A stretch of DNA of 32,000 bases from positions 270,001 through 302,000 of the forward strand of contig NZ_CP076228.1 of the NCBI RefSeq assembly GCF_021378375.1, given 5' to 3'. Made by a program: the position numbers and the translations under genes. This DNA is from Wolbachia endosymbiont of Drosophila innubila (GTDB lineage: Bacteria > Pseudomonadota > Alphaproteobacteria > Rickettsiales > Anaplasmataceae). How positions within the stretch are numbered: the first letter of the stretch is position 1; the number at the start of each line of letters is the position of its first letter. Shown here piece by piece: positions 8,626-29,828 of the stretch. A model generated the notes under the pieces. It did no database searches and was not told the DNA's origin. It saw nothing but the letters and a program-made list of their open reading frames with translations.

Positions 8626-9731
8626 ACTTTACTATAGCTCAATAATGCTATGTCTAACATTCTCAGCGAAAAAGCCCACTCATTGTCATACCACGCTGCA
8701 ACCCTGCATATATCACCTGTAACATATGTACCAGTTAAATCCACAATTGCACTATAAGGGTTATGCACAAAATCTATTGAGACTAAAGGTTCCTCGCATA
8801 TAGAAAGTACATTTGACATTGGATAACCCTCTGTCATCCTAGTACCCTCTGATGTCATCCGAGTAGCTGACACTGGGATCCAGAAATTAGATTCCAGCGT
8901 CACGCGCTGGAATGACGTAGAGGAGAGAGCTGCATCCTTAAACATTTCATTGATTTCTTTAACGGTCGCTTTCTTATCAGTCGTAAATGTAAAATCAACC
9001 ATAGAAACATTGCTAACCGGAACTCTGACGGCAGTGCCATCTAGCTTGCCCTTTAATTCAGGAATTATAGAACCAATTGTTTTTGCTGCCCCGGTTGTAG
9101 TTGGCACCATAGATAATCCGCAAGCCCTTGCTCTACGCAAATCTTTATGATTACCATCAAGAACATTTTGATCATTCGTGTAGGCATGTATAGTAGTCAT
9201 AAAACCGCTTTTTATACCTAAACTGGAGTGTAGGACTTTCACAATCGGAGCAAGGCAATTTGTAGTGCAAGAACCTGCTGATATCACTTTATGCTCTTTT
9301 TCGAGCATATCGTCATTCACACCATAAACTATAGTGACATCAGCATCCGGAACTGGAGCAGAGACAATTACTTTCTCTGCATTGTGCCTTATTGCTTCTT
9401 CACGTTTATTGAATGCACCAGTACATTCAAGTATTACATCAACATTCCAAGGAATATTTTCAGGATTCCGTTCTCTATATAAAGAAAACTTTTTGCCATT
9501 TATAGAAATCCAATTTTGAGACTCATTAAAATCAATATCACCACTGAATTTGCCATGAACAGAATCATATTTAATCAAATGTGCATGCTGCTTTGCACTG
9601 AGCGATCCATTGACAGCTACAACTTCTATTTGTTTGCTATATTCTTCTATTTCGAAAATAGCACGCAATACGCCTCTGCCTATTCTACCCAGACCATTAA
9701 TTCCTACACGAATCGTCATCTCTTCATTCAA
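8622..9731 (-). CDS. gap: Glyceraldehyde-3-phosphate dehydrogenase carrying an in-frame palindromic-repeat insertion
   Basis: NAD-binding N-terminus GINGLGRIGR, active site SCTTNCLAP, and C-terminal WYDNEW. An extra ~30-aa segment (SFQRVTLESNFWIPVSATRMTSEGTRMTEG) is encoded by repeat DNA. Confidence 0.9.
   Translation of the reverse strand: MNEEMTIRVGINGLGRIGRGVLRAIFEIEEYSKQIEVVAVNGSLSAKQHAHLIKYDSVHGKFSGDIDFNESQNWISINGKKFSLYRERNPENIPWNVDVILECTGAFNKREEAIRHNAEKVIVSAPVPDADVTIVYGVNDDMLEKEHKVISAGSCTTNCLAPIVKVLHSSLGIKSGFMTTIHAYTNDQNVLDGNHKDLRRARACGLSMVPTTTGAAKTIGSIIPELKGKLDGTAVRVPVSNVSMVDFTFTTDKKATVKEINEMFKDAALSSTSFQRVTLESNFWIPVSATRMTSEGTRMTEGYPMSNVLSICEEPLVSIDFVHNPYSAIVDLTGTYVTGDICRVAAWYDNEWAFSLRMLDIALLSYSKV
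8829..8920 (-). repeat. Family-1 composite palindromic element within the gap coding sequence
   Basis: Plus strand 8851-8918 reads GATGTCATCCGAGTAGCTGACACTGGGATCCAGAAATTAGATTCCAGCGTCACGCGCTGGAATGACGT. This is the same family as the intergenic copies. Boundaries are approximate. Confidence 0.85.
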
Positions 9732-9830
9732 AAAATTTAATTATAGAGGATATCACTTGATATTTCATTTTATTCTTTTGCTTTTCTATCGATATGAACA
9801 TTATAGCAAGGAGACAGGGCTAAAAACTTG

Positions 9831-10292
9831 CTTGACAAACTCCGCCAGCTCCCCTATCATGAAACTGAAGCTATTGTATTTGCTTTCGCCAATCTGCAGA
9901 TTAAAAGGTAAGGATTACTTAATGTATCGGCGTCTTATGTTCAATTTTTTGCAGTATATAGATACTGTATGTCTTTACAAAACTTCATCTACATCTAGAT
10001 TTTTATCTAAATAAGCTGAACGCGCTTATAAAGCGTTACAAGACATCAAAAAATGCCAATACTCGACAGAGATAGTAAAAGACTAGCTAACTCGGGGATT
10101 CTTTTGTCTTTTTCTGCTTAGTAAACTTCTTAAACATTTGCAGCGTAAGTTAGTTGCAATTAAAAGCAGCTTAATCTTGCTTGTCAAGCGTTTAAAACAT
10201 AAAAAACGCCAATATTTTAAAGCGGATAATAACCCCAGGGCTTCTTTTGCCTTTTTTTTCATTTGGTAAATTTCTTAATGTTTATAGCTAAA
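9831..10292 (+). repeat. ~462-bp repeat, copy A, with a promoter-like motif at its 5' end
   Basis: Aligns end to end with the reverse complement of 24872-25334. By eye I count about 6 substitutions plus T-run length differences. TTGACA at 9832-9837, 17-nt spacer, TATCAT at 9855-9860. An internal ~156-bp module (10031-10186) is repeated in diverged, shortened form at 10187-10292. Confidence 0.9.
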
Positions 10293-10320
10293 AGAGCCCA
10301 AGAGAGGTCAATGCCCCTGT

Positions 10321-10403
10321 GATGTCATTCCAGTGCTTGACACTGGAATCCAGCCTTTATTATGCAGCCACTTGGTTGAAATTAAGTCTTCTGGATCCCA
10401 GTG
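10321..10403. repeat. Family-1 palindrome plus the left half of a second palindrome that is interrupted by the insertion at 10404
   Basis: GATGTCATTCCAGTGCTTGACACTGGAATCCAG at 10321-10353. TTTATTATGCAGCCACTTGGTTGAAATTAAGTCTTCTGGATCCCAGTG at 10356-10403 matches 16796-16843. Confidence 0.85.
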
Positions 10404-10729
10404 GGCTTTGTTGCATCGCTAGCTATGATGGATTAAAGATAAAAAAGATAGGGAATATCAGTAGCTTATTATTCTGGTATTTATAACAAGAACGGTCAAT
10501 GAATACCTAAATTTGAGTAAAAGAAATTTCACTACCATTTACCAATCCGGCTAAAATTCAAGAATTTCAATGCTTTAGCTATTTTCAATAGAATTAAATT
10601 TATTAATATAAATAACAAATTACTATTCTTAAATTTGATCAGATTGATTGCAAAAAAACAAGATTTTCAATAGGTTGCTTATAATCCTAACTATAGTTAG
10701 CCTTTCATAAGTAGCGATGCAACAAAGCC
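10404..10729. mobile_element. 326-bp MITE-like non-autonomous element
   Basis: Perfect 18-bp terminal inverted repeats: GGCTTTGTTGCATCGCTA (10404-10421) and TAGCGATGCAACAAAGCC (10712-10729). Flanked by the 9-bp direct repeat ATCCCAGTG (10395-10403 and 10730-10738). The interior is AT-rich with no ORF in the track. Removing the element restores the intact palindrome seen at 3492-3524. Confidence 0.7.
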
Positions 10730-10856
10730 ATCCCAGTGTCAAGCACTGGGATGACAAAAAAAGGAGGCTACTCGGATGACAGGAGAAGGTACTGCCGTCA
10801 TAAAGGAACCAGTTTCAGCTACTTTCATGACATCGTTGTAACATTGTACCATATTA
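10730..10856. repeat. Right half of the interrupted palindrome plus an extended family-1 segment
   Basis: ATCCCAGTGTCAAGCACTGGGATGAC at 10730-10755. It is followed by ..GGCTACTCGGATGACAGG..CAGCTACTTTCATGACATCGTTGTAACATTGTACCATATTACAAT. The tail matches 3517-3554 upstream of the capsid gene. Confidence 0.8.
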
Positions 10857-10970: not shown

Positions 10971-11504
10971 ATGAATAAGAAATTTTTCTATTCACCATTG
11001 TCAATAAAAAGTATAGGAGAAAACGGTGTATTTTCTGGTTATGCGAGCGTTTTTAACATAGTTGATAAACAAAATGATCTGATATTGCCCGGAGCATTTA
11101 AGGAAAATTTAAACAGAAATAAAATAAAACTCCTTTGGCAGCATAATCCTGACGAACCTATAGGTAGTATCATAGATATTTATGAAAATGATGTTGGCCT
11201 GTATATAACCGCACATTTACTTTTGGGTATTCAGAAAGCAGAAGAAGTGTATTTGATGCTCAAAACTGGGGCAATTAACGGACTTTCCATCGGCTATATA
11301 CCTATAGAGTATGATGTTGATCATAAAAGTGGAGCTAGAGTGTTAAAACAAGTGGAATTATGGGAAGTCAGTTTGGTCACTTTTCCTGCAAACTTGGCTA
11401 CTCAGGTAATCAATGTGAAAAATCAGAACAATGAACAGGGAGTGTTAGCAAGAGCGATAGAAAAAGCAAATGCTGTACTTGCAGACATGTACATTTCTGC
11501 TTAA
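10971..11504 (+). CDS. HK97-family phage prohead (maturation) protease
   Basis: ATG 10971 is preceded by AGGAGG at 10961-10966. Family strings are present: FSGYASVFN..D...D.I.PGAF, LLWQHN..EPIG, GLSIGY, and VELWEVSLVTFPAN. Confidence 0.85.
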   Translation: MNKKFFYSPLSIKSIGENGVFSGYASVFNIVDKQNDLILPGAFKENLNRNKIKLLWQHNPDEPIGSIIDIYENDVGLYITAHLLLGIQKAEEVYLMLKTGAINGLSIGYIPIEYDVDHKSGARVLKQVELWEVSLVTFPANLATQVINVKNQNNEQGVLARAIEKANAVLADMYISA

Positions 11505-16794: not shown

Positions 16795-16946
16795 TTTATT
16801 ATGCAGCCACTTATTTAAAGTTAAGTTTTCTGGATCCCAGTGTCTGGGCACTGGGATGACATCCTCCCTAGCGGAGATTGCTCTCAAACCACAATGTTCG
16901 TACAGTAAGCACTGACCACTTTGCTTCAATATTTGCGATGCCCCTG
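16795..16946. repeat. Family-1 composite repeat starting immediately after the ychF stop
   Basis: TTTATTATGCAGCCACTTATTTAAAGTTAAGTTTTCTGGATCCCAGTGTCTGGGCACTGGGATGACATC.. matches 10356-10403. The segment ..CACAATGTTCGTACAGTAAGC.. is the reverse complement of the 4895-4920 type sequence. Confidence 0.85.
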
Positions 16947-24866: not shown

Positions 24867-24871
24867 TGTCG

Positions 24872-25334
24872 TTTAGCTATAAACATTAAGAAATTTACCA
24901 AATGAAAAAAAAGGCAAAAGAAGCCCTGGGGTTATTATCTGCTTTAAAATATTGGCGTTTTTTATGTTTTAAACGCTTGACAAGCAAGATTAAGCTGCTT
25001 TTAATTGCAACTAACTTACGCTGCAAATGTTTAAGAAGTTTACTAAGCAGAAAAAAAGACAAAGAATCCCCGAGTTAGCTAGTCTTTTACTATCTCTGTC
25101 GAGTATTGGCATTTTTTGATGTCTTGTAACGCTTTATAAGCGCGTTCAGCTTATTTAGATAAAAATCTAGATGTAGATGAAGTTTTGTAAAGACATACAG
25201 TATCTATATACTGCAAAAAATTGAACATGAGACGCCGATACATTAAGTAATCCTTACCTTTTAATCTGCAGATTGGCGAAAGCAAATACAATAGCTTCAA
25301 TTTTATGATAAGGGGGCTGGCGGAGTTTGTCAAG
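24872..25334 (-). repeat. ~462-bp repeat, copy B, inverted relative to copy A
   Basis: Its reverse complement aligns along its whole length with 9831-10292. On the minus strand the -35 TTGACA is at 25333-25328, the spacer is 17 nt, and the -10 TATCAT is at 25310-25305. Confidence 0.9.
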
Positions 25335-25351
25335 AAATTTTCTTATTTCAT

Positions 25352-27752: not shown

Positions 27753-29828
27753 ATGATAGAAAAGAAGTACAGTAAGATTTTAATAGCAAACAGAGGAGAG
27801 ATTGCCTGCAGGATTATCAGAACTGCCCATAAGATGGGTATATCTTGTGTGTGCATATACTCGGATGCAGATGTAAATTCTGTGCATGTAAGACAAGCAG
27901 ATGAGTCAAGATATATCGGCCCTTCGCCATCTTGCCTCAGTTATTTAAACATTGAAAAAATATGTGAAGTAGCAGTTGAAACAGGTGCTGAGGCAGTTCA
28001 TCCTGGCTATGGTTTTTTAGCAGAGAATCCAGATTTTCCACGTGCTCTTCAAAAACATAATATAGACTTCATCGGTCCCAGTGCAGAAACAATAGAAGTT
28101 ACAGCCAACAAAATAACAGCAAAAGAAGCTGCAAGAAAAGCTGGAGTGAATGTAGTGCCAGGATATATGGGTAAGATCAGCGATGCTGCCCACGCAGCTC
28201 AAGTTGCTAAAGAGGTCGGTTTTCCCGTTATGCTCAAAGCTGCATCAGGCGGTGGTGGCAAAGGAATGCGAATTGTAAACTCCAAAAAAGAAATTGAACT
28301 AGCATTTACATCAGCCACAAATGAAGCAGAGAAAAGTTTTAAGGATGGCAGTATCTTTATAGAGAAATATATAGAGTTGCCAAGACATATTGAAATACAA
28401 ATCATAGCAGATAAATATGGCAATATAGTTTGTCTTGGAGAAAGAGAATGCTCGATACAAAGGAATAATCAGAAAATAATAGAAGAAACGCCAAGTCCAT
28501 TCATTAGTGAAGAAGTAAGACAAAAAATGTATGTTCAATGTGTTTCTCTGGCAAAGCAAGTTGGCTATTTTTCAGCAGGCACTGTTGAGTTTGTTGTAGA
28601 TAAAGACCAAAACTTCTATTTTCTTGAGGTAAATACGAGATTGCAAGTTGAGCATCCAGTAACAGAATTTATAACTGGAATAGACATAGTAGAAGAAATG
28701 ATTAGAACTTCCTGTGGAGAGAAATTGAGATTCAATCAGGATGATATTAAACTTACTGGTTCTGCAATAGAAAGTAGAATTTGCGCTGAAGACCCATCGA
28801 AGAAATTTTTCCCTTCCAGCGGAAGAATAAAATATTACGATAAACCGGGTGAAAATGATTATGTAAGAATAGATGATGGAGTTGCTGCAGGTTCAGAAAT
28901 TAGCATGTTCTATGATTCGATGATTGCCAAAGTGATAACATATGGAAAAGATAGAGTAGAAGCGATCAGCAGAATGCAAAAAGCATTGTCTGAATGCTAT
29001 ATAGAAGGAGTAACAAATAATATAGAATTTCTAGAATCCATCTTCCATCACCCAAATTTTATCGCAGCAAAGCTCCATACGAGATTCATTCCAGATCATT
29101 ACCCTAGTGGGTTTCACGGCGATTTTGTTACAGAGGAGTATATTAAAATATTTATTTTCACTGCGTTATATGTTCATTTGGAAAATGAAGAAAGGTACCA
29201 TCATAAAGCAGTGAATGAAACATCTCAGGTGTCATTCCAGTGCGTGACACTGGAATCTAGTAAAAAAGAAGGGGCACCAGTATCAGCTACTCGGATGGCA
29301 GGTGACCGTGCAAGAGATTTATTCATAGTGAATATAAATGACAATGAGTACTCCGTAAATGCAAAATACCAAGATAATATATTAATAACGGTATATAATC
29401 ACAATAAATACTCCGTTATAGGCAAGTGGAAATCAAGTTATAGATTGCTATATATCACAATTAATGACGATACCAATATAGCACTTAAAATAGAAAGACA
29501 AGGCAGCAAGTACTTCATAAGGCATGCAGGCATGAAAGCTGAGTGTTGTATATTTAAGCCTCATGTAGCTGAATTAAGTAGGTTAATGCTAAATAATGAA
29601 ACAGAAGGGATTTCAGCAGATGCTGTAAAATCCCCAATATCTGGTTTATTAGTTAAATTGCACGTAAATGTAGGAGATCAGGTGGAAATAGGACAACCTT
29701 TATTTGTGGTGGAGGCAATGAAAATGGAAAATATCATATGTGCTGAAGCAGCAATGGTGATAAAAAATATTCCCGTTCAAGAAGGAAAAAATGTGCAGAT
29801 TGGTGATGTAGTCTGCTTTCTTAAATAA
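27753..29828 (+). CDS. pccA: Propionyl/acetyl-CoA carboxylase alpha subunit (biotin carboxylase plus biotinyl domain) with an in-frame repeat insertion
   Basis: Biotin carboxylase N-terminus [16 protein letters not shown]-grasp region with the GGGGKGMR loop, [14 protein letters not shown], and the C-terminal biotinylation motif VEAMKMEN. Confidence 0.88.
29229..29303 (+). repeat. Family-1 palindromic element within the pccA coding sequence
   Basis: GGTGTCATTCCAGTGCGTGACACTGGAATCTAG...CAGCTACTCGGATGGCAGG. It is translated as [25 protein letters not shown], the same peptide type as in gap. Confidence 0.85.

Follow-up and report, generated by a model that had tools for sequence, protein, structure and literature searches.

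The REP (repetitive extragenic palindrome)- or palindrome-targeting insertion sequences (ISs) IS1397, ISKpn1, ISPpu9/10 and ISPa11 have short extragenic repeats of palindromic sequence as their specific insertion sites. IS903 from a Klebsiella plasmid, the eponym of the IS903 group within the IS5 family, is 1057 bp long and carries 18-bp inverted repeats (IRs), GGCTTTGTTGAATAAATC. In a survey of Paracoccus, all ISs of the IS5/IS903 group gave 9-bp target duplications, compared with 2–6 bp for the other IS5 groups (PMC3281130, Table 2). MITEs, or transposable elements of the miniature inverted-repeat type, were previously unreported in maternally inherited intracellular symbionts before a case in Cardinium (Microbiol Spectr 2022, PMC9769881). 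For Wolbachia, a 2011 IS census recorded no repeat with IS hallmarks besides true ISs, and a 2024 census counted 'cMITEs' only in bulk. Here we analyzed a 326-bp, AT-rich element at positions 10404–10729 of a 32-kb window, i.e., the whole stretch of 32,000 nucleotides from the Wolbachia endosymbiont of Drosophila innubila (NZ_CP076228.1, positions 270,001–302,000). We found no prior description of this element, and no printed sequence of its terminal inverted repeats (TIRs), in the papers searched. Very probably, it is a genuine MITE with the architecture of the IS903 group, inserted in a hairpin repeat of the WsnRNA46 family.

Results

Structure of the element and its insertion footprint

The element lies on the forward strand and is bounded by perfect 18-bp TIRs, i.e., the left TIR GGCTTTGTTGCATCGCTA (10404–10421, +) is an exact inverted repeat of the right TIR, its reverse complement (10712–10729, −). 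These are the sole two matches to GGCTTTGTTGCATCGCTA and its reverse complement in the window with up to three mismatches allowed, at a chance expectation of 0.05. The inverted repeat runs on imperfectly to 38 nt with 79% complementarity. Both TIRs are directly abutted by the 9-mer ATCCCAGTG on the forward strand (10395–10403 and 10730–10738), a target-site duplication (TSD), whose right copy doubles as the inner arm in the stem of a 23-bp hairpin. The 290-bp interior has a GC content of 25.5%, compared with 35% for the window, and the longest stop-free stretch in the element covers 50 amino acids. No transposase similarity was found in it by tblastn with the transposases of IS903 and of an environmental IS (L055, see below). 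An initial annotation, made from the letters of the window, had already described the exact TIRs, the flanking 9-mers and the AT-rich interior without open reading frame (ORF), and all of these were confirmed. In-silico removal of 10404–10738 yielded CTGGATCCCAGTGTCAAGCACTGGGATGAC. As that annotation also stated, this restored palindrome is one G/A difference away from a paralogue in the window, located at 3491–3520 (3492–3524 in that annotation); the palindrome there (3496–3518) has one mismatch. We estimate that in 32 kb, the chance expectation for perfect 18-bp inverted repeats spaced within 400 bp and also flanked by a 9-bp direct repeat is far below 1e-6.

The uninterrupted sequence CTGGATCCCAGTGTCAAGCACTGGGATGAC also occurs naturally, as the allele of a related genome. 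We compared the complete genomes encoding an identical GapA (n = 7), including wMelCS_b (CP046924.1) and wTei (CP069052.1). In six of these seven (L035–L039 and L041, wMelCS_b and wTei among them), the element is present at the same position between gapA and the S78 prohead protease gene, and the copies are identical save for one single-nucleotide polymorphism in wTei. The seventh genome (L040, OZ034694.1) lacks exactly 335 bp, i.e., the 326-bp element and one 9-mer, with about 200 bp on each side being 100% identical. Three more distant supergroup A genomes, found via a 95%-identical S78 protease (L042, L043 and L044), likewise carry an uninterrupted site (...ctggATCCCAGTGtcaagcactgggatgac...). 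The empty alleles of L040 and L042–L044 hold ATCCCAGTG as a single copy; accessions of empty-site genomes are OZ034694.1, OX366375.1 and OZ034796.1.

A copy at another locus (L004, 2146–2471) is 98.5% identical to the window element and has AGGTGGAAT on both flanks; the locus is also found in a WO phage record from wMel_KL. Taking out the element and one 9-mer restores an ORF for a RuvC-like Holliday junction resolvase, a gene found without interruption in WOVitA1, WOVitB and further WO phages. Because this copy has its own 9-bp duplication away from the palindrome, the duplication is a property of the MITE and not of the palindrome. We rejected a reading of AGGTGGAAT as Shine-Dalgarno sequence and start codon, the reconstructed site being internal to the resolvase ORF.

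Small size with TIRs, a TSD of fixed length, the absence of a transposase gene, homogeneous multiple copies and empty sites, i.e., the features by which a MITE is recognized, all occur together in this element. The empty allele of L040, those of L042–L044 and the TSD-bearing copies elsewhere directly show what the initial annotation had proposed for 10404–10729, namely a footprint left by the transposition of a non-autonomous element into another repeat. That annotation had named a single-copy element, termini shared with no IS and the lack of an empty site as reasons to abandon this proposal, and none of the three holds.

Other functions of the element were considered as well. Promoter-like sites in it were not above those in shuffled sequences (5 compared with 3.0 ± 1.7), no evidence for a terminator was found, and it has no Rfam family match of its own. 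Its fold z-score of −3.7 is attributable to pairing of the TIRs, and together with the absent Rfam match this led us to reject a structured RNA. An identity with ncrwmel02 was also rejected, as we found no link.

A family of copies in Wolbachia

We scanned 185,579 representative genomes, one per bacterial species, for the exact 18-mer TIR and obtained 30 loci. Eleven were from Wolbachia or a Rickettsiales metagenome-assembled genome (MAG), and the other 19 were single matches in unrelated bacteria, about the number predicted by chance; one of these is in a Cytophagales MAG (L019). Both ends, where locatable, are 307–328 bp apart and never about 1 kb. Nine full-length copies from supergroup A and B genomes can be aligned end to end at 84–100% identity; the copy count that the initial annotation had called for hence reveals a multi-copy family. 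Identity reaches 96.6–100% among copies with perfect TIRs and intact duplication (window, L004, L010, L018 and L020), and the three copies from the Psylliodes chrysocephala strain (wPsyChr; L010, L018 and L020) are mutually 99.7–100% identical. Copies from wCon, wStur and wTis are 84–91% identical and have mostly lost a recognizable duplication. At least two age classes are thereby suggested. Outside the window, TSDs are AGGTGGAAT (L004) and CACTGGGAT (L018 and L020), with an 8/9 match in L012 and a 7/9 match in L010.

Truncated copies were found in wStri (L013), in the Rickettsiales MAG (L006) and in the filarial Wolbachia of Litomosoides brasiliensis (L015). The filarial locus (2609–3033) has an exact 18-bp TIR and about 200 bp of the MITE (86% identical over 134 bp), followed by a C-terminal fragment of an IS630-type transposase. 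From this exact TIR and partial element, the family or its remains reaches into nematode Wolbachia. The ORF beside the TIR was rejected as a partner transposase, since the IS630-type fragment is unrelated to the MITE.

The exact TIR had no match in IMG/VR viral contigs, and blastn with the MITE found no match in plasmids. In phage records, the sole match was a 51-bp fragment in an UNVERIFIED WO record (MN180250.1, 7159–7209; L001, 3001–3051). There, the first 51 bp of the MITE are followed by a jump into a baseplate gene, and the fragment is the end of the WO-prophage copy, probably cut off at an assembly join. A metagenome scan with a 25-nt pattern of TIR and conserved subterminal bases gave no match; with the 18-mer, it gave mainly chance matches, plus the IS ends of L055, L059 and L066. 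In wStri (L013, 1787–2000), the MITE copy ends after about 88 nt, and about 100 nt on, a gene for a large serine recombinase of WO (1976–3472, −) has its 3′ end. At the homologous wCon site (L007, 4838–5152), the 315-bp copy is full and a recombinase is absent. One end of a WO prophage may hence lie in or beside a MITE copy.

The interrupted host repeat and the choice of target

The repeat split by the insertion is a member of WsnRNA46 (Rfam RF02625), which the MITE itself is not. It has two inverted arms forming a stem of about 31 bp, and each arm is in turn a 23-bp hairpin with a 9-bp stem. This 9+5+9 hairpin is the unit of VNTR-105/141, two variable number tandem repeat loci, in which a 23-bp hairpin was described by Riegler et al. 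2012 (PMC3287509). In the window, the larger fragment of the host repeat (10320–10403, −) contains the distal arm (10320–10349), the loop at the centre and the other arm's first 9 nt, and the smaller one (10730–10790, −) contains the proximal arm and the 5′ tail, which correspond to RF02625 model positions 1–46 by way of the empty allele. The proximal hairpin at 10730–10752 reads ATCCCAGTG-tcaag-CACTGGGAT. At a gathering score of 65.3 bits, the empty allele (L040, 2283–2410) reaches 84.6 bits over model positions 1–151; the interrupted copy is a partial match with only 33.8 bits (10341–10403, model positions 38–115). The insertion demonstrably breaks the predicted long hairpin of this WsnRNA46-type paralogue. 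Two further copies remain in the window, an intact one at 3362–3540 (87.3 bits on the plus and 85 bits on the minus strand), with a free target 9-mer at 3496–3504, and a partial one at 16795–16860 (+), consisting of the loop and one 23-bp hairpin, with free targets at 16834 and 16849.

On the RF02625 model, the TSD falls at positions 38–46, i.e., on the inner stem arm CACTGGGAT. This same 9-bp stem arm was hit in six of seven interpretable insertions (window, L006, L010, L012, L018 and L020), three in each orientation, and the adjacent loop and flank sequences differ. Since the target 9-mer occurs only eight times in the window on both strands, chance recurrence is not credible. We consider a true preference for the hairpin arm likely on this comparison. 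Hu and Derbyshire (1998) reportedly found that IS903 prefers a symmetric target, which would fit the palindromic target here.

The apparent specificity could be an artefact if one or two hairpin insertions had been followed by passenger copying with a larger host repeat, which we regard as improbable. The flanks of the window copy, L020, L018 and L010 indeed belong to larger dispersed repeats (window 9822–10400 is 77% identical to L020 730–1337, and 10237–10358 is related to L010), and gene conversion occurs among Wolbachia repeats. However, the sequences beside the insertions differ (ccagaagac..., ccagaaaat..., ctaggtttt..., ctatgccc...), both orientations occur, and the three near-identical wPsyChr copies sit in host-repeat flanks that are far more diverged. 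Moreover, empty and occupied alleles of the window locus differ only by the MITE.

Assignment to the IS903 group and the missing transposase

The initial annotation had left the IS family unassigned; on the features of its ends the element belongs with the IS903 group of the IS5 family. It has an IR within the range of about 15–27 bp that starts with GGC, and a 9-bp duplication. A transposase of the IS903 clade (NF033579; PF01609 and PF13737; about 1050 bp) is not encoded. As the element is 326 bp long and non-coding, we regard it as derived from, or mimicking, an IS903-group IS and not as such an IS itself.

An IS sharing an end with the MITE was found in the metagenome contig Ga0068876_10124117 (L055); a second copy is on Ga0068872_10194378 (L059), both contigs being environmental, low in GC and Cytophagales-like. 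This IS is 1105 bp long, and its left end is identical to the MITE TIR in 18 of 18 positions. Its 329-aa transposase is 37.7% identical to that of IS903 (E = 1.5e-68), and both match NCBIfam NF033579. In L067, a transposase of 81% identity has a 17/18 TIR match beside it, and the Cytophagales MAG L019 has the same end with an N-terminal transposase fragment. From these matches, the MITE is bounded by bona fide IS903-group ends. The search for an IS with the same termini that the initial annotation had proposed thus succeeded on the left side. The right end of the L055 IS (GGCTTTGTTGCAACGAGT) differs from the MITE TIR, and its host is not Wolbachia, its nearest named relatives being Bacteroidota. 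A TSD was visible in neither of the two copies read, and inside the TIRs it has no sequence similarity to the MITE. As the interior is unshared and the host is not Wolbachia, we do not claim the L055 IS as the parent. In L066 (1645–1850; Ga0316607_1005308), the 18-bp end is followed by 13 nt of L055-type subterminal sequence and then by unrelated AT-rich DNA without transposase; it may be either the environmental IS in truncated form or a MITE belonging to it.

A search with the L055 transposase in a set of 5.8 billion proteins gave 7109 homologues at E ≤ 1e-20. In plasmids, no L055-type transposase was closer than one of the Bacteroidota species Chondrinema (48%). A weak tblastn match in L020 (E = 0.3) is spurious, lying within a PBP2 gene. 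ISWpi1 was rejected as a partner, since the ISWpi1-type IS beside the orthologous locus in L042 has unrelated termini (GAGGTTGTCCGGAAAC...). For wMel, Cerveau et al. 2011 name no IS903-group copy as potentially functional. IS903-group relics are on record in wMel and wPip, with 14 IS903-group copies reported for wPip, and none is listed as potentially functional (PMC3205602, PMC2515876). These non-functional relics agree with the orphan status of the MITE. The transposase that moved the MITE has probably died out or decayed in wMel-like genomes, or else came from a different strain or a phage.

IS1-family ends follow the pattern GGnnnTG in ISfinder family descriptions, and the GGCTTTG of the MITE fits this loose pattern. 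The element might accordingly have been moved by a transposase of another family with 8–9-bp duplications, i.e., IS1, IS4 or a potentially functional Wolbachia IS such as ISWpi1 or ISWen1, and the failure to find an IS903-group transposase in the window or the Wolbachia loci examined would be in line with this. We think it quite improbable, as the TIR agrees with the start of IS903 in 10 of 10 positions at equal IR length and with an IS903-group left end in full, and the termini of the ISWpi1-type IS in L042 are unrelated. No IS of any family with the exact MITE termini was found in the representative genomes. For Wolbachia, PMC3205602 (Table 1) does not list the IS1 family, whereas the relics in wMel and wPip are of the IS903 group.

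Age and distribution of the insertion

The genome with the empty allele, L040, is about 1.1% diverged. Over the 7-kb locus, it is the most divergent one, with 73–89 substitutions compared with 5–24 among the occupied genomes and the window. As L040 and the three outgroups L042–L044 hold the uninterrupted site, the empty state is ancestral and the insertion derived in the clade of wMelCS_b, wTei and the window. Its presence or absence separates this wMel-like clade (wMel/wMelCS, the mosquito-release strains and wTei) from the nearest relatives. The sister-strain comparison advised by the initial annotation thus yielded an empty site lacking precisely the element and one 9-mer. The claim of recent mobility, in turn, holds only in part: the insertion is derived within the wMel-like clade, and it is already common to wMelCS_b, wTei and four other complete genomes. 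Judged from these alleles, it is recent in evolutionary terms yet fixed across the clade, not currently segregating.

We also considered that the MITE was ancestral at the locus and that a precise deletion, whether an excision or a recombination event involving the two 9-bp repeats, produced the empty alleles. Such direct repeats could allow precise deletion, and with L040 alone the comparison has no root. Nevertheless, the MITE would then have to have been deleted precisely and independently in L040 and in the lineage of L042–L044, or deleted once with subsequent transfer. The occupied genomes form a tight cluster and the empty ones are more divergent, and among the representative genomes of other Wolbachia species, none carries a copy at the gapA/S78 locus. 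We hence hold an ancestral presence to be very improbable and, even if it were true, the element would still be a MITE inserted by transposition. That no transposition took place at all, the 9-mers being arms of a degenerate palindrome around 326 bp of ordinary intergenic DNA with inverted ends, is practically untenable: the 9-mer is one palindromic-repeat arm with its reverse complement 14 nt on, but a natural allele with identical flanks lacks exactly the MITE and one 9-mer, three outgroups also lack the MITE, the resolvase copy has its own duplication AGGTGGAAT at a non-palindromic site in a gene uninterrupted in other WO phages, and the TIRs match the end of an IS903-group IS.

In L043 (OZ034796.1, 1669–2138), the orthologous gapA/S78 spacer contains a 123-bp unit repeated 3.8 times at 99% identity; the unit is single in L042 (2030–2150) and missing from the window. 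This spacer is a VNTR-like locus of hairpin-containing units.

Genomic setting

The MITE sits in a 1.25-kb spacer between gapA (8622–9719, −) and the gene for the HK97-type S78 prohead protease (10971–11504, +), which starts 240 bp downstream of the element. No transposase genes are present in the 32-kb window. Outward promoters are possible in ISs of the IS903 group (PMC3281130). About 6 kb of housekeeping genes lie between the HK97-type major capsid gene (3561–4832) and the S78 protease gene, and a WsnRNA46-family repeat directly precedes both (3362–3540 and 10320–10790, respectively). The capsid-proximal copy scores above the Rfam gathering score on both strands.

The 23-bp-hairpin/WsnRNA46-type repeat also occurs in frame within two unrelated housekeeping genes, i.e., gapA (8775–8924) and a biotin carboxylase/pccA-like ORF (27753–29828, +; repeat at 29230–29263). 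In both ORFs, it adds a similar peptide (..SFQ(R/C)VTLES..PVSATRM..), and these in-frame repeats resemble the Rickettsia palindromic elements of coding regions. The insert-bearing 365-aa GapA is common to many genomes.

The window further contains a 473-bp inverted repeat of 97.5% identity, whose copies lie about 15 kb apart (9824–10295 and 24869–25341). It stops just short of the host hairpin repeat, and related copies flank the MITEs in L018 and L020. Since seven or eight window-specific differences of the first copy from wMelCS_b/L040 match the second copy, gene conversion between the copies is suggested. Two Logan contigs encoding an identical S78 protease (L033 and L034) break at position 1, within the 23-bp hairpin at the MITE boundary. 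As these short-read assemblies break there, the MITE and its host repeat are assembly breakpoints in draft Wolbachia genomes.

Discussion

For the MITE at 10404–10729, we propose that an IS903-group DDE transposase acting in trans would recognize both 18-bp TIRs, which start with GGC, and cut the target with a 9-bp stagger, the repair of which would give the 9-bp duplication. In the ancestor of the wMel-like clade, the element entered the inner 9-bp stem arm of a 23-bp hairpin and split a WsnRNA46-family repeat. Judged by recurrence, the MITE family strongly prefers CACTGGGAT / ATCCCAGTG, in either orientation.

Several points weigh against this proposal. The initial annotation expected a trans-acting transposase somewhere in the genome; tblastn with the IS903 and L055 transposases did not find one of the IS903 group in the window, in 25 Wolbachia loci or in WO phage records, and there were no Wolbachia-named proteins among the best 120 of the 7109 L055-transposase homologues. 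As only the 18-bp TIR is shared with the L055 IS, the MITE is not a simple deletion derivative of it. The first 10–12 nt are conserved in the group and its lineages number in the thousands, so that the identity of the remaining 6 nt with the L055 lineage could be coincidental. The larger host repeat could have carried some of the copies embedded in hairpins along as passengers, in place of independent transposition. The two orientations could also have arisen by recombination between TIRs, as shown for ISWpi1 (PMC3004938). Finally, degraded older copies (L002, L007 and L014) lack a clear TSD.

More speculatively, the copies might belong to a still-active transposon system. It would recognize the 9-bp stem arm of the ubiquitous Wolbachia 23-bp hairpin by sequence or structure and repeatedly knock out WsnRNA46-family paralogues. 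It would perhaps be borne by phage WO, with ends perhaps ultimately from a Cytophagales/Bacteroidota IS903-group element exchanged between co-resident symbionts. We regard this as a tentative and rather unlikely scenario. The 99.7–100% identity of the wPsyChr copies suggests recent activity, and the copy in a WO prophage gene makes travel between strains on the phage possible. If such a system exists, the 18-bp ends and an L055-type transposase would together make up a minimal transposon that is naturally compatible with Wolbachia, which is genetically intractable; the MITE ends could be a starting point for a transposon tool.

The present locus is a cleanly documented Wolbachia MITE, with TIRs, TSD, natural empty sites and a supergroup-spanning family. 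As an orphan that was recently mobile and for which no partner transposase was found, it extends what is known of waves of ISs and their horizontal supply in Wolbachia. The locus type published as WsnRNA46 is a repeat of dispersed copies, which insertion can destroy, and this bears on the interpretation of that small RNA. The element is of interest because it strongly targets hairpin arms, is an orphan, has near-identical copies within one strain and occurs in phage WO.

With regard to target choice, the REP-targeting ISs are autonomous elements of the IS3 or IS110 families that use the loop or foot of REPs. In contrast, the Wolbachia MITE is non-autonomous, of IS903 type, and duplicates one 9-bp stem arm. 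MITECca01 from the Cardinium endosymbiont of Oedothorax gibbosus is, like the element described here, a MITE in a maternally inherited intracellular arthropod endosymbiont (PMC9769881). It stems from the IS982-family ISCca4 of the same genome and has a Bacteroidota host (PMC9769881), whereas the present MITE is of IS903-group type, has an alphaproteobacterial host and a parent that was not found in the genome. IS903 itself (IS5 family, IS903 group; Tn903, Enterobacteriaceae) differs from the 326-bp, non-coding MITE by its length of 1057 bp and its own DDE transposase of 307–322 aa, and the TIR deviates from the IS903 IR in five of the last eight positions. The two nevertheless share an 18-bp IR with a GGCTTTGTTG start, identical first 10 nt, and the 9-bp length of the target duplication typical for the IS903 group.

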